Part shown: positions 1,352-31,285 of the stretch, one piece after another | How positions within the stretch are numbered: position 1 is the first letter of the stretch | Layout: each line of letters starts with the position of its first letter | IMG/VR virus record: IMGVR_UViG_3300009183_000020 | Span: 1 to 39,443 of that record | Strand: one strand, 5' to 3' | Source: a virus | Taxonomy: Duplodnaviria; Caudoviricetes | DNA length: 39,443 bases | Program-made: the position numbers and the translations under genes | The notes under the pieces: model-generated | What the model was told of the DNA's origin: nothing | Seen by the model: only the letters and a program-made list of their open reading frames with translations | Database searches by the model: none

Positions 1352-3894
1352 TTTACTGCGTCTCTTGGATCGATAATAAATTCTTGCCCTTGTTCTTCAA
1401 CTGATTCTGCCATGCGATCGACGAAACCTTCGCTCATCATTTCCTGCATGTTCCAGAGGATAAAATAATCAATGACAGGACGGATGTAAAACAAATTTAT
1501 AAAAGGAGTATTGTTTGTTACGACGTTCGATATATCCCTAGTTGGATCTTCTCCACGAATTGCTTTGGCAAACCCTGACGTGATTGGATCTAACTGTCCA
1601 AATACAGGTCCAGCCATAGCACCAGTAAACGTGTTATAGTTCTGGTCGTATTCTGTAAATAAGAAATCGCCGAGGATACCAGCACCACCACCACGTAGGA
1701 AAGCATCGTTTACCGTATCCCAGTTAATACCACCATCCATAACTAATGGTTTCGGTGTGCGTCCTTTAACAGTGTCTCTTAGTATGCCTGATAGGTATCC
1801 ACCGATTGTAGTCATGGCAATAAGTTGGGCCAAAGCAAATTTACCTTTGTGGTCGTTCATAAGCCAGTCGCTTATTGTATTTGATCCACGACCATAGACT
1901 TCACGTCCAATGACTTTTCTTAGAACAGTTACTGGAAACGACTTAAACATACTAAGCATGCGCATGGTTTCACCTAATGGTGTACCAGCCTGTGTACCAA
2001 AAGTAAGGTACTTCCGTTCTGCAGCACCGGGAGTAGGAACAGCCAAGTCAATGCGGTCTGTAAAGTAAGTCCTTAGTTTTTGCTCAAGCTGATCAAGCGC
2101 CCTTGTCCTTGCTTGGGGTGTCACCTTCCAGCCTTTTGCGTTAACGAGGTTATCCACGACATTTAACGGGAGACTTTGAATGGATGATGGTGTGACATAA
2201 AATTCCCCGTTAGGTGCCTTTTCCGTACTCTTACGTAAAGCTTCCCATTCTACATCACCAATGTCGTACAGGGACAGGGTTCTGGAAAGGTCTGGATCAA
2301 GATCTTTGAACGCCTTATTTGTATTACGACCAAGGTTATTTGCCATCAATTCGCCTGCAGTAGACTTGTGAACATCGTTCCACCAGTTCATGAAGTTAAG
2401 GCTATAAAATTTCTGCTGGACCTTGTTTAGCGCTCCCATTCCTTGAGAGTGAATCGTATATCGAGAAAGAGTGTTGCCGATCATGGAGTCAAGACCGATA
2501 CCCATTTGATGAAGAATTTCTTTTTGCTGTGGAGAACGAGCAAACATACCCGTAATGTTCTTGCCAAACGTTTCCATTTGAGAAAGTCCTTGGAATGACA
2601 TCTCAGATTGTAAGAATGCTTTATCGCCCATAGAGCTAAGAACGACTCCACCCATTTTAGATAGTTGAGTTACAATCCTTATACTACTAGAAATTTTATC
2701 TAGCGTAATGTTGGCAGGATATTCATTCTCACCAGATACTTCAGACCATGCTGCTTTAACACGCCAGTCGTCTATGCGCTTAACTTGCTCAGCGGCGTCC
2801 TCACGAGTGCGCGCCTCCTTGCGAAGATCGTTAACAATCTCTTGATATGTTTGCTTAGGGTTCGGTCCAAACGTTTCCATCATCGTGATGTTACGTGAAC
2901 GGAACAGCATATCGTTTAGAAGACCATCAGAGAAGTTTTTAGAACCAAACATCTGATTGTACTCAAACGAAGCATTGGCATCTTTAAAGTGTAAGACCCT
3001 GCTTGCGGAAGCTGAACGGGCCATAGATCCATGAGCAAAGAACTCAGCAATCTCGGCTTCACCAGATGGGGCTCCATGAACTCCAGTGTAAAGACTTTCG
3101 TGAACTTTTTCCATGAAGTCTTTAGGTGGAAGTCCTCTGAAGGTTGCTTGATGGTCAAGTAGCGGAAGCACAACTTGATACCACTTTTTAAAGGATTCAG
3201 CTTTGCTTAACTTGCCATTGGCATCTCTACCTAATTTCTGAATTTCTCCAGTGTCATGACTCTGACGCATGATATAACCGTCAAGATCACGAATGTATGC
3301 ACCAGCTCTGTTCTGACGTGACACCATTTCTTTGCGGACACGATTGTATGAACTAGCAATCTTAAGAGCAGAATCATTTTTAGATATGCCTGGTGTTCCA
3401 CCTTTCTTATTAAGCTCTGAAATTTCCTGATAAATCTCACGATCAAGTTTACCTGATCTGAACTCTCTCATTATTCCAAGCTGTTCAATCTCTGCAATAA
3501 ACGATCCGAAATACTGATTGTACATCGCACGCGCTTTGTAGTCTACGCTGAGTCGTGCACCTGGCTTAGATAAGTTTCCCCCTTCAAGAAGAGACTGAAG
3601 TCCCTCGCCCCACGTATCAAATTTCTTAACTGCTTCTTTTACCTCACGTTTTGCGTTAATAGTCAACAACCGATTACGCTCATTAACCTTGGCTTCAAAC
3701 TTTACTGAATTTATGATTTCGCCTTCAATTTCCTTAAGGGCGTCTTCAAGTTTCATTTTGGTTTTAACCACGCGATTATTGGCAAGATTATTGATGCGTA
3801 CTACAAGCTCGTCGGCTTGGACGTCGGTCATTTTCTTATCACGGACAAGGGACTTGATCCCTTTGGTACAATCAGATACGGATTTACGGGCCAT
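1348..3894 (-). CDS. Large internal virion (DNA ejection) protein, BPP-1/epsilon15-like
   Basis: 848 aa, helical; GAYI...GY..RQSHD, FKSFP, RGGGAGILGDFLF and C-terminal TPFINLFY motifs as remembered for this family; last of the ejection-gene block. Confidence 0.75.
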   Translation of the reverse strand: MARKSVSDCTKGIKSLVRDKKMTDVQADELVVRINNLANNRVVKTKMKLEDALKEIEGEIINSVKFEAKVNERNRLLTINAKREVKEAVKKFDTWGEGLQSLLEGGNLSKPGARLSVDYKARAMYNQYFGSFIAEIEQLGIMREFRSGKLDREIYQEISELNKKGGTPGISKNDSALKIASSYNRVRKEMVSRQNRAGAYIRDLDGYIMRQSHDTGEIQKLGRDANGKLSKAESFKKWYQVVLPLLDHQATFRGLPPKDFMEKVHESLYTGVHGAPSGEAEIAEFFAHGSMARSASASRVLHFKDANASFEYNQMFGSKNFSDGLLNDMLFRSRNITMMETFGPNPKQTYQEIVNDLRKEARTREDAAEQVKRIDDWRVKAAWSEVSGENEYPANITLDKISSSIRIVTQLSKMGGVVLSSMGDKAFLQSEMSFQGLSQMETFGKNITGMFARSPQQKEILHQMGIGLDSMIGNTLSRYTIHSQGMGALNKVQQKFYSLNFMNWWNDVHKSTAGELMANNLGRNTNKAFKDLDPDLSRTLSLYDIGDVEWEALRKSTEKAPNGEFYVTPSSIQSLPLNVVDNLVNAKGWKVTPQARTRALDQLEQKLRTYFTDRIDLAVPTPGAAERKYLTFGTQAGTPLGETMRMLSMFKSFPVTVLRKVIGREVYGRGSNTISDWLMNDHKGKFALAQLIAMTTIGGYLSGILRDTVKGRTPKPLVMDGGINWDTVNDAFLRGGGAGILGDFLFTEYDQNYNTFTGAMAGPVFGQLDPITSGFAKAIRGEDPTRDISNVVTNNTPFINLFYIRPVIDYFILWNMQEMMSEGFVDRMAESVEEQGQEFIIDPRDAVK

Positions 3895-6800
3895 TATAGT
3901 AGTAAGCAGTTAGAGACTTTTTGAAGGAGCGGTGCGTTTACATCAGCAGAAGACATTTTCTGAACAGATTTAAGATAGTCAGTAGGTTTGCGGATACCTT
4001 GTTTAACCATTTCAGAATAATCTTGAAGGACTTCGTCTAAAAGAGTAGTCGTTCCTTTTTGACCTTCCCAGGTTGTTTTCATAAAAAAGAACTCTCTGAA
4101 AGTATCGACAAAGGATTCAAGTAAGGTTTTAGGAGAACCCTTAACTGCAGGAATTGATTGTAAGAAAAGTTGGAATGTTCGATTTGTTAATCCTTCTGCA
4201 ATAAATTCGTCAAAGTTAAGTAGTCCGTAAAAAGGTACTTCAAGTTCGTTAAAGAAAACTTCGTCATTACCGTTAAGATATTTTCGAAGATTACCATCAT
4301 AATCAGTTTCAAACTTTTTAACCGCTAACTCATAGGCTTGTACAAGTTTTGCCATAGGTTTATTCTTGGTTTTCTTGCTGTAATCAATCAGCGACTTTAG
4401 GTAGTTATCTCCTTTTAGAACCGTGGTCCTAACAGATCCCATTGTAGAGGAAAGATCTTTACGGAAACGGCGAACCGCTGAACCATGAACTAATTCATGC
4501 AAAAATGTTTTTGGGGAAGAAGATCCGTTCAGGGTTATAGTATCAATTGAGGCATCGTACAAACCCCAAGCGTTCTCATTTGTCATAAGATCTTTGTTAA
4601 ACCGTACAGGAATTTCGTTAAGAGTCGGGTCAATTTCAAGAAGTGTATCAAACGCTTTTGCAATATCCGGCATGTACAACCGAAAACCCTCAACAAGTAA
4701 GTCAGTACTAGTTTCATATTTTCCACCAAAAAGTGGTGTGTTAGTAAGTTTATGCCACTGGTCGAAAGTAAGATCGTTAGTAAACATTCTAAGTTTTTCT
4801 GCTCGTGAGTCCCACTCACTTTTAGTAGGTTGTTTAGAGGGGAAGGTGTCTTTCGGAACAAACTGAATTTGTTTTGGATCAGTAGCAATCCAGAAACCCG
4901 TGTCAATAGTATAGGCCCCATCATAACCTTGAGCAACCAATTCATCAAGAGTAAGATAGTTAGCTTCTTCTTGGCCTATTTTTTTAGGGTTAGTTATGTT
5001 TACATATACCTCATAAATTTCTCCTTCAGGATAATTTAACGCATAGGTTGAGGCATAACTAGACATGAACTCATCTTCCTGCACACCTTTTTCGCCTTTA
5101 TTTGGGGTAAACCATATCCCTTCTGAATGAAGAGAATTTTGCTTGTATGCAGAACCAGGTCTCTTTAATTGATCAAACGATGTAATTCCTTTTTCCCCAC
5201 CATGATATAGTTTTATAAGGTTACCGGAGTTATCTCTAACTTTGCTATCTGGCATTAACTCATCAGTAAATTCACTTTTAGTAGGTGGTTTAGAACCTGT
5301 ATCAGCCATCCGACCAGTCATCTTATTCCAGTCTTCTTCTTCAAGATCTAGTCCGCGGAGGAAGTCTAGTTCTTCATCCATAGCAGCAAACTCTGCTTCG
5401 TCAGGTTGATCACGATGCGGTTTAATTTGTTCTTGTGGAACCATCTTTCCGTCATCGATTTCTTTCTGAAGTATCTGTGCTCGGGCCTGAGCTTTCTTTT
5501 CTTCACGTGCTTTATAGTCAGCAATCGCTTGCTGATTGCTGGCTACTTTATTATTAGCCTCTCTAACAATACGATATTCGTAAGCAGACTTAATACTATT
5601 TTGATCGAATGCAACATAAATATCGTCAAGTGGTCCACCGTCAAAAGTGTTCCTAATAACTACACCGTCGTGACCAGCAGCCTTTGCTTCAGCAATAACT
5701 TGCTTGTAAGTTTGTGGACGATGAAACTCACCATTAAAGTCAACGATTTTTGGATTCTTCATTGACACCATAAACGCACTTACATTGCCACCTTCACGGA
5801 AAACAGAGTCCACACCTAGGCGGTCAGCAGCTTCATTACCAAGTGCTTTGATCTCAGACTTAAGAATTTCATTTGCTTCATTTGGATTCTCTCTAAGTTC
5901 TTTTTGTATCGCATCCATTTTATCCATAATGTCAGAGACACGTGGATCATTCTGAAATTCCGATTTAAGAATATAGTACTGAGAAGTTTTCGGACTACCA
6001 GCAAAGAAAAATCCTTCTTTTGCACTGCTAGCGCCCGTGTTTTTACCAAGAGTTGTAGGATCGAATTGATCGCCCTGCCAAGTACGGCCATGGTATACAA
6101 TTACCGGTAAACCATTACCATCAACAAGCTTGTTGCCTTTATTAAACTCGTACAGATCTTTTTGCTTTGGTGAAAGAGTAGCGTAGTTTTCCTTAAATTT
6201 GGCATCAGCGGCATCATAATCTCTGACTGTGTTGGTCAGGGTCTTGTTCATACCTACCTCATCATCTAAGTCAACATACCTACCTGGATCAATATCTCGT
6301 CCACGCAAAAAGTCATCCTGTGCACCAGCCATCATGTTCTCTTGGGTCTCAGGTGTAAGACGTCGTTGCATATTAAGTATCCCGTTAACGCCAAGTCGAA
6401 GTGTGTTTATGCCTGCACCAAAGACACCAGCAAGAGCGATGTTAGTAACAAAGTCACTTCCTGTGTAGTCAATCTTGCTTTGCTGATTTGAAATCATTAG
6501 CGGAATTTCAGTGATTGCTTGACCAACTGTTCCTTCAATAATAGCAGCTGTATAGCCTTTCATGGCTAATCCACGAGCGGCAAGAACTTCCTCTGTAACT
6601 AGTCCACGAGCAACGATTCGTGAAACTGCACTTGTTGCTTGAGCAGCTTTGGCCCCAGACCCCACAATGGGTAAAAACATAAGTGGAAGATCGACTGGGT
6701 TTAAAATCGATCCAAGAAACTGAACTCCCATACTACCAGCAATACGACCGCCACCAGTTGTACCAGCTGCAAGAATAGCCTGACGATCATTCTCTTCTCT

Positions 6801-7088
6801 CTTTCTTTCAACAAGCAGACTCATTTCATCGCTAGTAGGATCGTAATCGAAATTTATGTTAACTCCTTCATTTTTTGCCCAGTCAATAGCTTCTTTACGA
6901 GGAATATATGGGTTAAGTTCTGGATCGTATTCTTTTGCTAGACTGTACTCTGACATGCGATACAGAGAAGTTAGCATTGACTCTTTCATACCCTGCTCGA
7001 ATGCAGTAGAATAGAAAGTGCTTGATGGAATGTCTGACTTTGCGCTAGGCAAAGCCGATCCGTTTACTGTAGAAAAAAGCATGCTCAT
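3894..7088 (-). CDS. Internal virion/ejection protein fused to two ADP-ribosyltransferase-like (ART-PolyVal-type) domains and a zincin metallopeptidase (polyvalent protein)
   Basis: Hydrophobic Gly/Ala-rich N-terminus; domain 1 VDGNGLPVIVYHG..GFFF..MKNP..GHDGVV..IYVAF..IKS; domain 2 VRDNSGNLIKLYHG..GIWFT..ITNP..GYDG..PKQI; C-terminal GLYD..ITL..HELVH..EFIAE. Confidence 0.8.
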   Translation of the reverse strand: MSMLFSTVNGSALPSAKSDIPSSTFYSTAFEQGMKESMLTSLYRMSEYSLAKEYDPELNPYIPRKEAIDWAKNEGVNINFDYDPTSDEMSLLVERKREENDRQAILAAGTTGGGRIAGSMGVQFLGSILNPVDLPLMFLPIVGSGAKAAQATSAVSRIVARGLVTEEVLAARGLAMKGYTAAIIEGTVGQAITEIPLMISNQQSKIDYTGSDFVTNIALAGVFGAGINTLRLGVNGILNMQRRLTPETQENMMAGAQDDFLRGRDIDPGRYVDLDDEVGMNKTLTNTVRDYDAADAKFKENYATLSPKQKDLYEFNKGNKLVDGNGLPVIVYHGRTWQGDQFDPTTLGKNTGASSAKEGFFFAGSPKTSQYYILKSEFQNDPRVSDIMDKMDAIQKELRENPNEANEILKSEIKALGNEAADRLGVDSVFREGGNVSAFMVSMKNPKIVDFNGEFHRPQTYKQVIAEAKAAGHDGVVIRNTFDGGPLDDIYVAFDQNSIKSAYEYRIVREANNKVASNQQAIADYKAREEKKAQARAQILQKEIDDGKMVPQEQIKPHRDQPDEAEFAAMDEELDFLRGLDLEEEDWNKMTGRMADTGSKPPTKSEFTDELMPDSKVRDNSGNLIKLYHGGEKGITSFDQLKRPGSAYKQNSLHSEGIWFTPNKGEKGVQEDEFMSSYASTYALNYPEGEIYEVYVNITNPKKIGQEEANYLTLDELVAQGYDGAYTIDTGFWIATDPKQIQFVPKDTFPSKQPTKSEWDSRAEKLRMFTNDLTFDQWHKLTNTPLFGGKYETSTDLLVEGFRLYMPDIAKAFDTLLEIDPTLNEIPVRFNKDLMTNENAWGLYDASIDTITLNGSSSPKTFLHELVHGSAVRRFRKDLSSTMGSVRTTVLKGDNYLKSLIDYSKKTKNKPMAKLVQAYELAVKKFETDYDGNLRKYLNGNDEVFFNELEVPFYGLLNFDEFIAEGLTNRTFQLFLQSIPAVKGSPKTLLESFVDTFREFFFMKTTWEGQKGTTTLLDEVLQDYSEMVKQGIRKPTDYLKSVQKMSSADVNAPLLQKVSNCLLL

Positions 7089-21624: not shown

Positions 21625-21638
21625 GGAAACACGAATCG

Positions 21639-21672
21639 AGGCCACTCGGCGCAAGCTGGGTGGCCTTTTTTT
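21639..21672 (+). terminator. Intrinsic terminator
   Basis: AGGCCACTCGGC-GCAA-GCTGGGTGGCCT stem with a GNRA loop, followed by a T-run. Confidence 0.9.
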
Positions 21673-25184: not shown

Positions 25185-25218
25185 GACCCCTGCCGGAAAC
25201 GGTGGGGGTTCTTTGTTT
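25185..25218 (+). terminator. Intrinsic terminator
   Basis: GACCCCTGCCG-GAAA-CGGTGGGGGTT stem, then CTTTGTTT. Confidence 0.85.
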
Positions 25219-25598: not shown

Positions 25599-26474
25599 AT
25601 GGCAAACGAACGAGGCAAATCTGTCGATACTACCTTCCTCAGTATTGATCAGGCCGAAAAGAGAGGATTCCTACACCGCGACTACATTGCTCACTGCTTT
25701 CGATGGTCGCATGTAATGAAGCGAATGATGGAGCAAAAGCGTTATGCTACAGCTCGTATCATGGATATCGGATGTGGACGTGAGCTCCCATTTGCCAAGA
25801 CCCTGTACTCCAGCAAGATGATTCCAAAGCAATACATCGGCATCGACGCTGGTCAAATGCTCCCAGACTCTGTCGAGGCTGCTCGTAAGGGTAAGATGGG
25901 TGAAGTAACTACCTTATATCCGCATACACTATTCTGCAGGGATTTCGTAGACAACCGGTGTCAGGGTCTAGAGGGCAACATTACAGATATTGTTTGCTTT
26001 GAGGTTGCTGAGCACGTTGAGCCGGTAATGCTTAAGGAAATGCTTGACAGTATGCTACGCCTTATCGATCCTAATATGGGCCGCGTGTGGATCTCTACTC
26101 CCTGCTGGGATTATAAGTCCTGTGCTGCTAACCATGTTAACGAGATGACATACGCCGCGTTCGGTGGTATGCTCTGTGAGACTGGCTTCCATATCGAGGA
26201 TGTGCACGGAACATTCGCTTCAATCAGTGATTACAAACCGCACATGTCTCCTCAGTACTTAGAAGTGTTCAACGACCTTCGTGAGTACTACGACACTAAC
26301 GTGCTTTCTACTATCTTTGCTCCTATGTTCCCAGCACAATCACGCAACTGCTTGTGGGAACTGCGGCATCCAAGAGCAAATGAACTTCCACAACTAGATA
26401 ACGGATGGGCACACGTCAAAGACTGCCAGGCGCCTTGGGGCTCATCCGAGCATTGGAAAGATATGTCCCGGTAA
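25599..26474 (+). CDS. Class I SAM-dependent methyltransferase (UbiG/small-molecule-like)
   Basis: Motif I IMDIGCG, motif II YIGID, DIVCFEVAEHV and G.VWISTP...NHVNE; lacks DPPY/NPPY and ENV DNA-methyltransferase motifs. Confidence 0.88.
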   Translation: MANERGKSVDTTFLSIDQAEKRGFLHRDYIAHCFRWSHVMKRMMEQKRYATARIMDIGCGRELPFAKTLYSSKMIPKQYIGIDAGQMLPDSVEAARKGKMGEVTTLYPHTLFCRDFVDNRCQGLEGNITDIVCFEVAEHVEPVMLKEMLDSMLRLIDPNMGRVWISTPCWDYKSCAANHVNEMTYAAFGGMLCETGFHIEDVHGTFASISDYKPHMSPQYLEVFNDLREYYDTNVLSTIFAPMFPAQSRNCLWELRHPRANELPQLDNGWAHVKDCQAPWGSSEHWKDMSR

Positions 26475-26579
26475 ATTTCCATAATGTGTGTGGAAGACCG
26501 AGAGCTGAATCAAGCGGTCTATAATATCCTACACTCAGCGACTTGCCGCCGTTAGCGGCTAATACTCTCCAATAAATAT

Positions 26580-27044
26580 ATGAACGCGTTTAATACAAAT
26601 CAGGAGTTTACTCCATTAACCGATATTGCCCGCTTCCACGAGAAGTTCGGGCTTGAACAGAATAATAGCAAGGTTGCTGTTGCATCTGAGCAACAACCTG
26701 ATGGCGATATGCTTGACAACTGGTTAAGCAAAAATCGCGACAAGATGACCATTGAAGAATGGGAATTACGCCATCTTCGTTTGGCTGATGAAGCCGAAGA
26801 GTACGCGGAAGCTGTAGAAGATGAAGATGACGAGGAAACTCTTGATGCGCTTGTCGACATTATGTACATTGCATTGGGTACTGCATACCGACGCGGCTGG
26901 GACTTTGCTGAAGCCTGGAAGCGTGTACACACTGCTAACATGGAAAAACAACGTGGCAATCCTACTAATTCAAAGTATGGATCTGGCTTCGACATCATTA
27001 AACCCCAAGGCTGGAACGGCCCTGATCATAGCGACCTAGTATGA
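26580..27044 (+). CDS. MazG/PRA-PH-like all-alpha NTP pyrophosphohydrolase
   Basis: I..FH.KFG, R..RL.DEAEE, LDALVD..Y.A.G, AW.RVH.ANM.K, IKP.GW..PD..DL. Confidence 0.9.
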   Translation: MNAFNTNQEFTPLTDIARFHEKFGLEQNNSKVAVASEQQPDGDMLDNWLSKNRDKMTIEEWELRHLRLADEAEEYAEAVEDEDDEETLDALVDIMYIALGTAYRRGWDFAEAWKRVHTANMEKQRGNPTNSKYGSGFDIIKPQGWNGPDHSDLV

Positions 27045-27589
27045 GACCGAAAATCATTATTGTAGAAGGCCCAGACAACTGCGGCAAAACAACCCTGGCT
27101 AAATCTATTGCATACCGCCTTAACGCTACATACTGGCACATGACTGCTGGCAAAGGTTTAGTAGATCACGATGCCATGGCATTGTACCAGCTTAACGCTA
27201 TTCATAATGCGATTGTAAATGTAGAACAAGGTCGCACGATAGTGTTCGACAGATTGTGGCCAAGCGATGTAGTCTATGGCACTGCTCTTCGTGGTCGTCC
27301 TTCAACTCCAGTCGACCAGTTTATAGAACTTCTAAAACCTCATGCCGTGTATATCTTTTGCATGCGTGCTAATGCTATTGAGGAGCATGCTAAGAATCAA
27401 GACCCTGACCACCCATACGACCCTTCTGTGTACGCAAGTATTTACGACGGGTATATGCGACTGCTTAGTAAGTTCGAGAAAGAACATCCCAATGTGCTTA
27501 CTTATTGGTTAGATAACTTTATCTCTAATCAGAAAATCGATCGTTCAGGTCAGGTTAACGCATTTATCTACGGCCTTTCAAATCTATGA
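27041..27589 (+). CDS. Thymidylate-kinase-like (d)NMP kinase
   Basis: P-loop IIVEGPDNCGKTT and VFDR.WPSD.VYG motif. Confidence 0.88.
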   Translation: MRPKIIIVEGPDNCGKTTLAKSIAYRLNATYWHMTAGKGLVDHDAMALYQLNAIHNAIVNVEQGRTIVFDRLWPSDVVYGTALRGRPSTPVDQFIELLKPHAVYIFCMRANAIEEHAKNQDPDHPYDPSVYASIYDGYMRLLSKFEKEHPNVLTYWLDNFISNQKIDRSGQVNAFIYGLSNL

Positions 27590-28446
27590 AGCTATACTCC
27601 TCATTCAATAATTATTGGTTAGAAATGCTCGGAACATTAGTTCGTGTAGGTAATGACGTAGAAGTCCGTGGAAATAAGACTAAGGAACTTCTCGGCGATA
27701 CAGCCTGCTTTCCGATGTCGAAGCCTTTTCTCACGGTTCCTGGACGTAGGATCTCTTATGACTTTATGTTCGCTGAGGCATGGTGGATACTTGCCGGCGA
27801 GAACAGGGTCGATATGCTTCTTGAGTTTGCTCCGTCATATAAGAAATTCTCTGACGACGGCATTCGTTTGACTGGCGCCTACGGTCCTAAGATTATCGAT
27901 CAGATCTGTTATGCAGTAGATTGCTTAATCAATGATCCTTACTCCCGTCAATCTGTTATCAACATCTGGCGCGAGCGTCCTGGCCCTTCAAAAGATATAC
28001 CCTGCACGTTAAGCGTACAATTCATGATTCGTGATGAGCGTATCCAGACATTTGTTACTATGCGCTCTAACGATCTGTGGTTAGGTGCTCCTTACGATGT
28101 AGTTACAATGACTATGCTTACCATTCAGGTTGCAATTGAATTGTATGCCCGTACCGGTAAACTGTATGAGATTGGTTACATGCACCACACCGCTGCATCT
28201 CGCCATATCTACTTTAAGGATCTAGAGAAGGCCAAATCTGTAATTTCTTCAGAGCAGTATACACCTACACCGGATCCAGAGGCGAAGATAAATTTAAAGA
28301 GCCTGTGCACGTCTCTTGGAGATTCCCTGAACTTTCAGAGGGTGCTATATTCAAGGATAGATAAAGCAAATAACGAATTGCTTTATGATACTGGATTCTC
28401 AACACTACACCCCTGGATATTATATGGTCTCACCAATGCTCGCTAA
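27586..28446 (+). CDS. Thymidylate synthase homolog of the dCMP-modifying type (dCMP hydroxymethylase/methylase/hydroxylase-like)
   Basis: AE..WIL.G, GAYGP, SRQ.V, catalytic PC (C140), MRSND, SRHIY; Asp171 (PYD) lies 31 residues after the Cys, as T4 gp42 C148/D179, where ThyA has Asn. Confidence 0.88.
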   Translation: MKLYSSFNNYWLEMLGTLVRVGNDVEVRGNKTKELLGDTACFPMSKPFLTVPGRRISYDFMFAEAWWILAGENRVDMLLEFAPSYKKFSDDGIRLTGAYGPKIIDQICYAVDCLINDPYSRQSVINIWRERPGPSKDIPCTLSVQFMIRDERIQTFVTMRSNDLWLGAPYDVVTMTMLTIQVAIELYARTGKLYEIGYMHHTAASRHIYFKDLEKAKSVISSEQYTPTPDPEAKINLKSLCTSLGDSLNFQRVLYSRIDKANNELLYDTGFSTLHPWILYGLTNAR

Positions 28447-29215
28447 AAAGTACTTACCTGATAAACACAATGTTATCGGTTGGTATGCCTCAGAAAAACT
28501 CGATGGAGTCCGTGCCATCTTCGATGGTAAATCATTTTGGACACGAAACGGAAATCGTCTTGATGCTCCTTACCATTTTACTGCCTCGCTGGAAAAGCTT
28601 CCCTTACACGGAAGGTTCCTGGACGGAGAACTTTATATTAGCCGGGGACGCTTCAACGAGTGCAGTGGAATTGTTCGTCGACACGGTGATGAGTGGTGGG
28701 GTATTGAGTTCCACGTTTTCGATCTCATTTCTGAAAGAGACTCGTTTGCAATTCGCAACGACGATCTTAGGATGATGATTGAAGACGCTGACATCCCGCA
28801 TCTTATTCATGTCGAACAAGACATTGTGAAATGCTTGGACGAACTTAGTAACTGGCATAACGAAATCACTCGCCAAGGTGGTGAAGGTATTATGCTCAAG
28901 AATCCACAGTCCATGTATGAGCAAAAGCGGTCATCGCATCTACTAAAGATGAAAGACTTCCATGAAGCAGAATATACCTGCGTCGGTATCGAAAACGGTA
29001 AAGGCAAGTATAATGGAATGATCGGTGCCTTAGTTCTTGCAGTAGGAGATACTGCTGAGAAGACGTTTACTGCTGGTTCAGGACTTAACGATCATGAGAG
29101 ATCAGTTTCACCGCATTATTTCATAGGCCAGAAAATTACCGTAAAGTATTTCGAGTTATCGAAAGACGGCATACCACGCTTCCCAATCTACAAAGGAATA
29201 CGAACAGATAAATGA
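28424..29215 (+). CDS. lig: ATP-dependent DNA ligase, minimal type (probable start MVSPMLAK)
   Basis: SEKLDGVR (motif I), LDGEL, FHVFD, GGEGIML, LLKMK, GSG, G.PRFP. Confidence 0.95.
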   Translation: MVSPMLAKKYLPDKHNVIGWYASEKLDGVRAIFDGKSFWTRNGNRLDAPYHFTASLEKLPLHGRFLDGELYISRGRFNECSGIVRRHGDEWWGIEFHVFDLISERDSFAIRNDDLRMMIEDADIPHLIHVEQDIVKCLDELSNWHNEITRQGGEGIMLKNPQSMYEQKRSSHLLKMKDFHEAEYTCVGIENGKGKYNGMIGALVLAVGDTAEKTFTAGSGLNDHERSVSPHYFIGQKITVKYFELSKDGIPRFPIYKGIRTDK

Positions 29216-29382
29216 GAATAATCTATTGCCATAAATGTCGTGACTATAAGCGTGCCTATGAAGGTCGTGTAGAATGCATGGACTGTACTAAAGCACGCAG
29301 CAAAGAAAACCACTTTAAAAACCACGTTCATCGGTTACAATATCTAAAAGATTACTACCATCGTAACAAAGCAAATGCGTAA
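29212..29382 (+). CDS. 56-aa basic zinc-finger microprotein
   Basis: Below the ORF-track cutoff; MRIIYCHKCRDYKRAYEGRVECMDCTKARSK...; ATGA overlap with the ligase stop, and its end overlaps the polymerase start. Confidence 0.7.
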   Translation: MRIIYCHKCRDYKRAYEGRVECMDCTKARSKENHFKNHVHRLQYLKDYYHRNKANA

Positions 29383-31285
29383 ACACAAAGACATACCAGG
29401 GCAAATGCCTTTATGGGAACCACCATCAGAATGGCGTTGTCCAAAAGAGTTTCCTAACATTAATAACGTAGATCTAATCGGCTTTGACGTCGAGACTAAG
29501 GATCCACATCTTAAATCTAAGGGTCCAGGCTTCATACGAGGTGATGCCAAGGTGGTCGGGTTCTCCATGTCAACAGGTGATGCCAGCTGGTATTTCCCGT
29601 TTGACCATGAGTATGGCAAGCAACATCAAATGCCTCGCGAATCATGCCTCAAGTTCTTAGAATCTATAGTCGGTGATACCTCCAAGACCCTTGTAGGAGC
29701 CAACACGATGTATGAGCGTGAAGCTATCTGGTCGCTCGGTATTACTTGCAAAGCAAAGATCTTCGACATACAGATTGCTGAGCCACTCATTGACGAAGAA
29801 AAACCTGCGTCACTCGAAGAGATTGCACGACGTCGACTCGGCCAGACTAAAGACGAAGAAAAGCTTAATGAAGCAGCTAAAGACTTCGGTGTAGATCCTA
29901 AAGGCGGATTGTGGATGCTAAGTCCTATCTACGTAGGTGCATACGCCGAATGGGATGCATGGGCACCCGTCCATATCTGGCACCACCAAATGAAAGAGAT
30001 CCGTGAACAGGGTCTTGATGAAGTACTTCAATTGGAACTGGCAATTCAGCCAATACTATGGGAAATGCGACTGCGCGGCATCCCTGTAGATGTAGAAGCA
30101 GCGCGACAATTATCAAAAGAGTATTATGCTAAAGAAAATATTATCACTGAACACCTTGCTGAGGATTACGGCGCCGGTCTCCCGCGCCTCGATATCTGGA
30201 GCGGAGTCTCCCTTAAAATCTATTGCGACCACCACGGATTGCAGTATCCTACCACACCAAAAGGCAATCCTTCATTTACTAAAGAGTTCCTTGAAGGAAG
30301 CAGCTTCCCGTTCCTCAAGAAAGTCCGGGACGCTCGAGAGTATAATCGACTTGCTTCGACATTCATTGACGGTTGGATTGTCGGAAATCAAATCAATGGA
30401 TGGGTTCACCCACAATGGAAGCAGCTGGCTTCTGATGATGGAGGAACTAGGACTGGGCGTATGGCAGCTTCAAATCCAAATCCGCAACAGGTCCCTTCCA
30501 GATCTAAGTCGGGTAAACGTATTAGAGGATTATTCTGTGCTCCTAGTGGATCGTCGTGGGCCAAGCTCGATTACTCGCAGCAGGAGCCTAGAATTCTCAT
30601 CGGTTTTGCTGAGAGAATGGGCTTGCCCGGCGCGGCTGATGCAGCCCAAGTCTACCGAGATAATCCTGACCAGGACTTCTACAATCTTATGGTCCAACTC
30701 GCCTCTGTCGAACGACCTCAGGCAAAAGATCTTTACCTCGGAAGATGCTATGGTATGGGCATCGACAAACTTGCAGCCAAACTCCGCTGTGACCATATCA
30801 AAGCTCGTGCCATCCTTGATCAATTCGACCTGCACGTTCCATTCGTTAAACAACTAGGAGAAAAGTGCGAGCAAGCCGCTCAAAATCGTGGGTTCATTAA
30901 GACCCTGTCTGGTCGTCGTCGACACTTTAACATGTGGGAACCCGCTAACTTCGGTGCTGCATGTAAAGTTGCTGACGATTGCTGGCCAGTAGATACTCGT
31001 GAGTTAGCACTAGAAAAGTGGAAAGGCGTAGCAATACGTCGTGCTGATACACGCAAGGCACTTAACGCACTGATCCAAGGATCTGCGGCAGACATGACTA
31101 AGTTTGCCATGCTTAAAGTGTTTAACGAACTAGGGCATATACCTTATATGCAAGTTCATGACGAGCTTAACTACCCTGTATCAAGCGAGGAAGAAGCGCA
31201 AGCTATTAAACGGTGTATGGAAACCTGCGTTGACATATCTGTTCCTATTAAAGTAGATCTAGATTACGGCACATCATGGAAGTAA
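29375..31285 (+). CDS. polA: Family A DNA polymerase with 3'-5' exonuclease
   Basis: ExoI FDVET, ExoIII YAEWD, TGR.A..NPN.QQ.P, motif A DYSQQEPR, motif B R..AK...LG..YG, motif C VHDEL. Confidence 0.97.
   Translation: MRKHKDIPGQMPLWEPPSEWRCPKEFPNINNVDLIGFDVETKDPHLKSKGPGFIRGDAKVVGFSMSTGDASWYFPFDHEYGKQHQMPRESCLKFLESIVGDTSKTLVGANTMYEREAIWSLGITCKAKIFDIQIAEPLIDEEKPASLEEIARRRLGQTKDEEKLNEAAKDFGVDPKGGLWMLSPIYVGAYAEWDAWAPVHIWHHQMKEIREQGLDEVLQLELAIQPILWEMRLRGIPVDVEAARQLSKEYYAKENIITEHLAEDYGAGLPRLDIWSGVSLKIYCDHHGLQYPTTPKGNPSFTKEFLEGSSFPFLKKVRDAREYNRLASTFIDGWIVGNQINGWVHPQWKQLASDDGGTRTGRMAASNPNPQQVPSRSKSGKRIRGLFCAPSGSSWAKLDYSQQEPRILIGFAERMGLPGAADAAQVYRDNPDQDFYNLMVQLASVERPQAKDLYLGRCYGMGIDKLAAKLRCDHIKARAILDQFDLHVPFVKQLGEKCEQAAQNRGFIKTLSGRRRHFNMWEPANFGAACKVADDCWPVDTRELALEKWKGVAIRRADTRKALNALIQGSAADMTKFAMLKVFNELGHIPYMQVHDELNYPVSSEEEAQAIKRCMETCVDISVPIKVDLDYGTSWK

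Follow-up and report, generated by a model that had tools for sequence, protein, structure and literature searches.

A phage gene module predicted to make 5-hydroxymethylcytosine and to methylate its hydroxyl group

Introduction

What does a phage make with a thymidylate synthase-like enzyme, a nucleotide kinase, a pyrophosphatase and a methyltransferase that are encoded side by side? The question is raised by positions 25,599 to 28,446 of the IMG/VR virus record IMGVR_UViG_3300009183_000020 (Duplodnaviria; Caudoviricetes), of which the whole stretch of 39,443 nucleotides was analysed and is called the window here. An original prediction, made from the letters of this DNA, had described the four genes as a candidate new cytosine-modification pathway. 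On balance, and by a small measure, the sequence comparisons make it probable that cytosine in the phage DNA is replaced by 5-hydroxymethylcytosine (5hmC) made at the nucleotide level, and that the hydroxyl group is methylated to give 5-methoxymethylcytosine.

To our knowledge, the 5hmC of phages is capped either with sugars or with a carbamoyl group. The openly accessible literature that we searched yielded no methoxymethyl base, no methylated 5hmC in a phage and no Hen1-like partner; a methyltransferase in such modules is not mentioned in the main text of the MetaGPA study (PMC8670742) or in the accessible part of PMC13326640, and the accessible part of PMC7824862 does not describe the one in this module. 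Virome synthases of the Asp type next to a deaminase, PRA-PH and PolA have already been reported (bioRxiv 2024.12.05.627091; PMC8670742). The supply part of the supposed new pathway (synthase, kinase, PRA-PH MazG and PolA) is therefore known, and its novelty narrows to the methyltransferase step.

The synthase carries the residues of a dCMP hydroxymethylase

The fourth gene of the module (27586-28446, plus strand; PF00303, E 2e-21) encodes a ThyA-fold synthase of 286 amino acids, predicted to be a hydroxymethylase of deoxycytidine monophosphate (dCMP). It has the catalytic cysteine C140 (E. coli ThyA C146) and, from residue 159 on, the motif MRSNDLWLGAPYD, both as originally described, and its D171 occupies the position of N177 in E. 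coli ThyA and of the aspartate in T4 gp42, which bears out the claim of an aspartate at the dCMP-selecting position. In an alignment that took in ThyA, T4 gp42, RB69 gp48, Xp12 and SPO1-like enzymes, D137, T141, D163 and D171 correspond to L143D, H147T, D169 and N177D in E. coli numbering, which is used from here on. The combination D143/T147/D169/D177 is identical to that of T4 gp42, whereas Xp12 has N143/P147 and RB69 has E143/N169. According to published work, Asp177 directs the enzyme to dCMP, an acidic residue 143 goes with hydroxymethylation through water access, and Asn169 goes with 5-hydroxylation (PMC13326640). The best sequence match in the PDB is the CMP hydroxymethylase MilA (E 5e-24), which is also the best match by fold, with a root-mean-square deviation (rmsd) of 1.5-2.0 in most rows.

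Methylation to 5-methylcytosine (5mC) oxidises folate, and Xp12 carries a DHFR. Neither a DHFR nor a dCMP deaminase was found among the 47 open reading frames (ORFs) of the window or by six-frame search with related proteins, and a query with the Xp12 DHFR had no match in the other loci compared. A separate enzyme for dTMP is present in relatives, namely ThyX in the cultured phage AXL3 and canonical ThyA in loci L187 and L197. Because of the T4 gp42-type residues, the kinship with MilA, the lack of a DHFR in these searches and the separate dTMP enzyme of relatives, the product is very probably 5hm-dCMP, as far as sequence comparison can tell.

Three other products have to be weighed. Least probable of all is an ordinary thymidylate supply, made up of a dUTPase, a thymidylate synthase and a dTMP kinase. 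The Pfam names, the DR2231 family of the MazG, the dCMP deaminase at 64 of 111 related loci and the published annotation of the genes in AXL3 and PW916 as a thymidylate pathway (PMC7504290, PMC9414467) would all suit it; none of L143, H147 and N177 is kept, however, ThyA equivalog scores lie far below the cut-off, relatives have their separate ThyX or ThyA, and AXL3 DNA is left uncut by all 35 enzymes with G/C in their sites. A synthase of the RB69 type, making 5-hydroxy-dCMP for later O-methylation to 5-methoxycytosine, is only marginally more credible: an acidic residue 143 with Asp177 is common to RB69 gp48 and an aromatic 5-hydroxyl would be a UbiG-like acceptor, but the diagnostic D169N is found neither in the window nor in any of 93 partner synthases of related loci.

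Plain replacement by 5mC, as in Xp12, is very improbable as well. It draws on Asp177 and the PYD motif, which are common to Xp12, and on virome synthases near deaminase, PRA-PH and PolA, which gave 5-methyldeoxycytidine in 5 of 7 tests (bioRxiv 2024.12.05.627091). Against it stand D143/T147 in place of N143/P147, the lack of a DHFR in the window searches, and digests of AXL3 described below; it would also leave the methyltransferase unexplained. Of the three products first proposed, 5-methoxymethylcytosine is thus the one that fits: plain 5mC is disfavoured because residue 143 is acidic and no DHFR was found, and 5-methoxycytosine because residue 169 is Asp and not Asn. That cytosine is replaced before replication is well supported.

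A methyltransferase with a Hen1-like metal site

The first gene (25599-26474, plus strand; PF13489, E 1.7e-7) encodes a class I methyltransferase of 291 amino acids that depends on S-adenosylmethionine (SAM), with an AlphaFold model at pLDDT 94. Searched singly against the PDB, the sequence returns lectin noise only; a broad profile of the family ranks HEN1 first (E 5e-13), followed by UbiG, bacterial Hen1 and human HENMT1. Four candidate metal ligands, E135, E138, H139 and H179, are invariant in 112 of 112 family members, and in the broad profile the fourth one falls within a family motif NHVNE aligned with DHRFE of Hen1. HEN1 itself binds Mg via Glu796, Glu799, His800 and His860 and activates a hydroxyl (PMC10781085). 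The window protein shares with Hen1 the SAM motif and the ligand set E, E, H, H, although it scores far below the family cut-offs of both Hen1 (TIGR04074, a longer, full-length model; 19.5 bits against 340) and UbiG (TIGR01983; 27.7 bits against 102.95), and no Pnkp partner was seen among the window ORFs scanned with Pfam and PHROGs.

The family has its own invariant motifs, HRDYxxHxxRW near the N-terminus and APxxP...RNxxW near the C-terminus, and its nearest ESM Atlas clusters are 95-100% viral. It comprises 987 proteins at E <= 0.001 and 324 clusters at 50% identity at E <= 1e-30; the gene table of AXL3 lists a Nitrospira homologue at 73% (PMC7504290).

We predict an O-methyltransferase for the 5-hydroxymethyl group. 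Methylation of a hydroxyl is suggested because HEN1 is the best sequence match, the four-ligand metal site is invariant and the motif of amino-methylases is missing; the hydroxyl of 5hmC is the proposed target because DNA has no 2'-hydroxyl and this would be the only new hydroxyl predicted in these phages. The earlier description as a UbiG-like enzyme of small-molecule type proved too narrow, as the nucleic-acid O-methyltransferase HEN1 matches best, metal site included.

The same co-occurrence data as reported below would also fit a methyltransferase acting on N4 or N3 of 5hmC, which would give an isobaric N-methyl-5hmC, and several N-methyltransferases are found by fold at Z 16-17.3. We regard this as unlikely. 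The motif typical of N4mC and N6mA amino-methylases, (D/N/S/H)PP(Y/F/W), occurs in 0 of 112 family members, a four-ligand metal site is of the hydroxyl-activating enzyme type, and methylation at N3 would break base pairing.

As an observation of its own, one lineage carries a different class I methyltransferase directly upstream of the family member (L185 5558-6235, L235 3944-4585, L237 7592-8224).

The methyltransferase accompanies hydroxymethylase-type synthases across viruses

Loci with the methyltransferase were collected in two IMG/VR scans with 99 and 195 relatives, of which the best 80 were taken each time; once 41 duplicate contigs had been removed, 111 loci were left, among them the window, L086 and two GenBank records, with AXL3 outside the count and treated apart. 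For the reverse approach, a single-sequence synthase search of IMG/VR gave 2 loci and an alignment query was used instead. The resulting synthase-first set holds the best 80 of 581 loci plus L087, and as its seed consisted mostly of methyltransferase-linked synthases, the share of methyltransferases in it is biased upward.

A synthase is in view at 96 of the 111 methyltransferase loci and at all 69 that have flanks of at least 3.5 kb on both sides. The original prediction had staked itself on the methyltransferase occurring together with Asp-type synthases, and at the well-flanked loci it does so without exception. Every one of the 93 partner synthases with complete motifs has D143, T or S147, D169 and D177 (3 more are truncated), and D169N occurs in none of the 93. 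Many of these loci are near relatives, so that their independence rests on phylogeny. In a quick tree, in which the join of ThyA and Xp12 is flagged as a long-branch pairing, the partner synthases fall into four lineages, one of them the clade that holds T4 gp42 (support 99). The methyltransferase tree in turn requires three changes of partner, each to another hydroxymethylase type. The gene search and synthase tree proposed at the outset have thus placed the module in many loci and its partners in four hydroxymethylase lineages. Starting from the synthase, the methyltransferase is found at 45 of 81 loci, and at 25 of the 37 with 5-kb flanks. The methyltransferase thus depends on the hydroxymethylase, which for its part also occurs without it. 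Its required target is not 5-hydroxymethyluracil, because the window and close relatives lack a dCMP deaminase.

An unlikely reading, though not a negligible one, is a genome with bare 5hmC in which the methyltransferase acts elsewhere, on RNA 3' ends like Hen1, on a nucleotide by-product or on a protein. HEN1, the best sequence match, requires a ribose diol, a ligase adjoins the module, and 17 T7-like loci have a hydroxymethylase with no modifier in view. The ligase, however, is a DNA ligase with homologues at 14 of 111 loci, the annotated window ORFs include no Pnkp partner, an unrelated target would leave the fidelity to hydroxymethylases through three partner changes unexplained, and AXL3 resists XmnI/PdmI, which partly cuts T4gt DNA.

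In the Pelagibacter phages HTVC200P (L004 6487-7765) and HTVC119P (L092 8057-9341) and in the 17 T7-like loci, only a kinase and a synthase of hydroxymethylase type are in view; the synthase of the two named phages is annotated as thymidylate synthase. These two phages and their relatives likely carry bare 5hmC.

A glycosyltransferase-like gene in the same slot

No glycosyltransferase was found in the window, either among its 47 ORFs with Pfam and PHROGs or with a six-frame profile of the glycosyltransferase-like family of relatives, although many small ORFs have no family and a highly divergent enzyme could be missed. The absence reported for this complete genome was thus reproduced, and with it the lack of the sugar-transferring component of a T4-type system.

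Related loci show what may take the place of the methyltransferase. A glycosyltransferase-like gene (phrog_14998) lies upstream of kinase and synthase, usually alongside a C5 methyltransferase, at 9 of the 36 synthase loci without the methyltransferase and at none of the 45 with it; the 9 loci represent about 5 lineages, so that a Fisher p of 4e-4 overstates their independence. The other 27 methyltransferase-free loci comprise the 17 T7-like ones, 8 whose sequence ends no further than 1.7 kb upstream, and L087 and L164, which simply lack the gene. Among 196 methyltransferase loci (not de-duplicated) the glycosyltransferase-like family is likewise missing. Its label derives from two Atlas neighbours, one at 0.95 and one at 0.94 in which 40% of members carry T4-Gluco-transf, from GenBank names and from a neighbouring UDP-galactopyranose mutase; it is unconfirmed by hhalign to T4 BGT (probability 1.9) and by the PDB, where no match was obtained.

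Fusion proteins link the methyltransferase to the pathway: in P0259 it is joined to MazG, and in P0271 and P0272 to a glycosyltransferase-like domain (a P0272 query found no IMG/VR locus). The latter two bring up a further reading, in which an enzyme of phage or host that escaped recognition adds a sugar to 5hmC, and this sugar is then O-methylated. Vicinal diols are the substrates of Hen1 and UbiG, and 4 of 111 loci have a weak GT8 match nearby. We nevertheless consider it improbable, given that searches of the complete window and of AXL3 gave no glycosyltransferase and that the slot partner is absent from the methyltransferase loci.

Modules of hydroxymethylase and phrog_14998 were seen in L192, L200, L205, L215, L224, L229 and L231-L233; in L192 the glycosyltransferase-like gene and a C5 DNA methyltransferase are fused into an 870-amino-acid protein. 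Actinomycetia phage DSL-LC01 (L161) and Gordonia phages carry kinase, synthase, deaminase and PolA together with a glycosyltransferase, a UDP-galactopyranose mutase, a MazG and two further methyltransferases; these cultured actinophages probably have a galactofuranosyl base modification.

The cultured relative AXL3

Searching 50,697 GenBank phages for the methyltransferase gave 5 records: AXL3 (twice), PW916 and two environmental genomes. AXL3 carries the whole module with a D-type synthase, and no glycosyltransferase was detected in it by sequence searches, with 17 ORFs family-scanned. Of 37 enzymes tried on its DNA, just TasI and Tru1I, both with A/T-only sites, cut it, and it resists the 35 with G/C in their sites (PMC7504290), even though the genome has 13 KpnI, 14 AhdI, 21 XmnI and 1 XbaI sites.

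Digests of DNA with defined bases are available for comparison in the supplement rows for 12 of these 35 enzymes (PMC7653180). There, KpnI cuts the 5mC DNA of Xp12 completely and AhdI does so partly; XmnI and XbaI partly cut the 5hmC DNA of T4gt and leave glucosylated T4 DNA uncut; and the other 8 enzymes do not cut T4gt DNA, nor Xp12 DNA where sites exist. The AXL3 pattern speaks against plain 5mC and, with little force, against bare 5hmC. This comparison spans two laboratories and two enzyme brands, and partial cuts were perhaps scored as none. In the titles and abstract starts of a literature listing, no chemical study of AXL3 DNA appears.

MazG and kinase as predicted suppliers of the nucleotide

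Between methyltransferase and synthase lie genes for a MazG-like NTP pyrophosphohydrolase of the PRA-PH / DR2231 family (26580-27044, plus strand; 154 amino acids; PF01503, E 1.1e-8; phrog_671) and a P-loop deoxynucleoside monophosphate kinase (27041-27589, plus strand; 182 amino acids; PF02223, E 2.5e-6; phrog_761). The MazG matches the structure and family of DR2231, with the acidic metal motif E71, E74 and D93 invariant in 11 of 11 sequences. A MazG of the same family adjoins the Xp12 synthase, and in one lineage a NUDIX protein replaces it. PRA-PH is also enriched in contigs experimentally selected for modified cytosine (corrected p 1.2e-45), while Methyltransf_23 in the same table is not significant after correction (27 vs 1436 contigs; PMC8670742), a null result that is expected for a broad family yet lends no support. 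Because of the shared family with Xp12, the PRA-PH enrichment and the NUDIX substitution, we predict by analogy that the MazG is a dCTPase, possibly acting on dUTP too. The kinase is predicted to act on 5hm-dCMP.

Several side observations concern these genes. About 65 nucleotides inside the MazG (26675-26741) are replaced in strains of two runs, and in most relatives the variable loop encoded there is shorter than in the window and L005. The Xp12 'HAD hydrolase' next to the synthase (L085 46207-46980, minus strand) aligns as a MazG of the same family with a C-terminal extension, and its annotation looks wrong. The kinase carries a fused UDG-like domain (weak match to PF03167, E 0.026) at 46 of 111 loci, though none was seen in the window; such a domain was also noticed by eye in methyltransferase P0146, at the N-terminus, and MW202510 has an annotated stand-alone glycosylase (genes concerned include L001 10289-11272, L013 4888-5898 and L002 16211-16699). 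The domain may remove deaminated 5hmC. DUF1599 (nucleotide modification associated domain 1) adjoins the synthase in loci of the T4 clade (L049-L073 group, L156-L159).

Proposed pathway and its relation to known systems

In the pathway that we favour, MazG would hydrolyse dCTP to dCMP and so remove the normal cytosine donor, as its family and context suggest. From dCMP, methylene-tetrahydrofolate and water the synthase would then, with high probability, form 5hm-dCMP in the manner of T4 gp42 and MilA, and the kinase, followed by the host NDP kinase, would supply 5hm-dCTP to the phage PolA. Finally, the methyltransferase, with SAM and a divalent metal at E135/E138/H139/H179, would methylate the hydroxymethyl oxygen, a step that appears reasonably likely once 5hm-dCMP is granted. 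Its kinship with Hen1 and the pattern of the glycosyltransferase slot incline us slightly towards finished DNA, rather than the nucleotide, as its substrate. The methyl cap would keep the resistance to Type II restriction and would likely hide the hydroxyl read by 5hmC-specific nucleases.

A number of points weigh against 5-methoxymethylcytosine. The DR2231 protein, nearest in structure to the MazG, is a dUTPase. The rule for residue 143 is a correlation, and the Xp12 methylase has the PYD motif too. By fold, CmoM comes out on top (Z 19.3; rmsd 3.3 over 217 aligned residues) and HEN1 lower (Z 16.5; rmsd 2.8 over 190); scores hardly fall along the list, in which many N- and C-methyltransferases reach Z 16-18, so the fold comparison alone decides nothing on the chemistry; the ExxEH motif is also common to UbiG. 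The metal of Hen1 holds a vicinal diol (PMC10781085), which 5hmC does not have. The methyltransferase is optional, since 36 of the 81 synthase-first loci, the 17 T7-like ones included, have none within 10 kb and none was found in the stretches of HTVC200P and HTVC119P that were examined. That of AXL3 is just 28% identical to the window's, and the fusions P0271 and P0272 imply that both activities can coexist, so that a sugar could be the target there.

The glucosyl-5hmC pathway of T4 (gp56 dCTPase, gp42 dCMP hydroxymethylase, gp1 dNMP kinase and alpha/beta-glucosyltransferases) follows the same logic with the same synthase signature, and the gp42 clade includes some partners of the window's methyltransferase family. 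The window differs in its MazG-type pyrophosphatase, TMK-like kinase, family A polymerase and a synthase nearer to MilA, and it has a SAM methyltransferase in the module where no glucosyltransferase was found. MilA of mildiomycin biosynthesis, at 32% identity the best solved relative, shares Asp at 143 and 177, but it uses CMP in an antibiotic pathway, whereas the window synthase belongs to a phage DNA replication module. The 5mC modules of Xp12 and PaMx74 (dCMP methylase, 5mC-selective deaminase, DHFR and MazG) have an Asp-type synthase and the same MazG family, and Xp12 replaces all cytosine, as is predicted for the window; Xp12 differs in N143/P147 and in the DHFR and deaminase that the window lacks, and the 50 of 63.8 kb of Xp12 that were examined contain no annotated methyltransferase of this kind.

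In RB69 and DLP3, with arabinosyl-5-hydroxycytosine, a ThyA-fold enzyme on dCMP likewise yields an oxygen handle that is later capped, though the window has neither D169N nor a sugar pathway. In 5-carbamoyloxymethylcytosine, the hydroxyl of 5hmC is again capped by a group other than a sugar, and the gene responsible lies near that for a dCMP hydroxymethylase, but it encodes a carbamoyltransferase in place of the SAM methyltransferase (PMC8670742). The Hen1 RNA 2'-O-methyltransferase and UbiG share the class I fold, DxGxG and ExxEH with the window enzyme, and Hen1 also the fourth His ligand; its own terminal motifs, low family scores, missing Pnkp and mostly viral Atlas clusters set it apart.

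We give about an even chance to the wider proposal that phages of a widespread aquatic and soil family have 5-methoxymethylcytosine in place of all cytosine, by way of a metal-dependent Hen1-like enzyme repurposed from RNA ribose. If this holds, the methyl ether would add a natural base to those known in DNA and cap 5hmC without a sugar, and the large, unstudied family of viral enzymes that makes it would use a Hen1-type metal site for DNA chemistry. Such a pathway would account for the restriction resistance of AXL3, correct the thymidylate annotation of AXL3 and PW916 and possibly offer a one-step tool to label or protect 5hmC for sequencing, with SAM analogues.

Genome setting

The window is the complete genome, about 39.3 kb, of a freshwater podophage, closed to a circle by a 104-nt terminal overlap, and the contig is the entire assembly of this phage genome. 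By Pfam and PHROGs, the plus strand carries a PolA/primase/helicase module and the minus strand podovirus-type structural genes. ORF coordinates and Pfam families agree with the four adjacent genes described ahead of ligase and polA; the order originally listed is reversed relative to the strand, on which it reads methyltransferase, MazG, kinase and synthase, followed by an ATP-dependent DNA ligase assigned by family matches (28385-29215, likely start ATG 28436, plus strand) and the family A DNA polymerase PolA (29375-31285, plus strand; PF00476). ATGA overlaps couple the MazG and kinase ORFs and the kinase and synthase ORFs. The arrangement is not due to chance, because the identical gene order recurs in dozens of related phages and in AXL3. 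Close strains occur in three freshwater studies, where one contig spans methyltransferase to ligase with the order unchanged. Across the 111 loci PolA is near the module in most relatives, and the window's ligase occupies the spot that in most of them holds the dCMP deaminase, which several close relatives lack as the window does.

In a comparison of palindrome avoidance as a possible genomic trace of cytosine modification, A/T-only 4-mer palindromes were the rarer kind, relative to C-containing ones, in 31 of 60 long loci (0.92 vs 0.90 in the window), and a promoter scan of the window gave no signal (29 found, 26.6 expected). Strong terminator-like hairpins were seen at 25185-25210, just ahead of the ORF that precedes the module, and at 21638-21667, both on the plus strand. 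In the virion gene block, a 1064-amino-acid protein (3894-7088, minus strand) contains two ART-PolyVal (ADP-ribosyltransferase) stretches (E 2e-19) and is possibly an ejected enzyme for host takeover or counter-defence.

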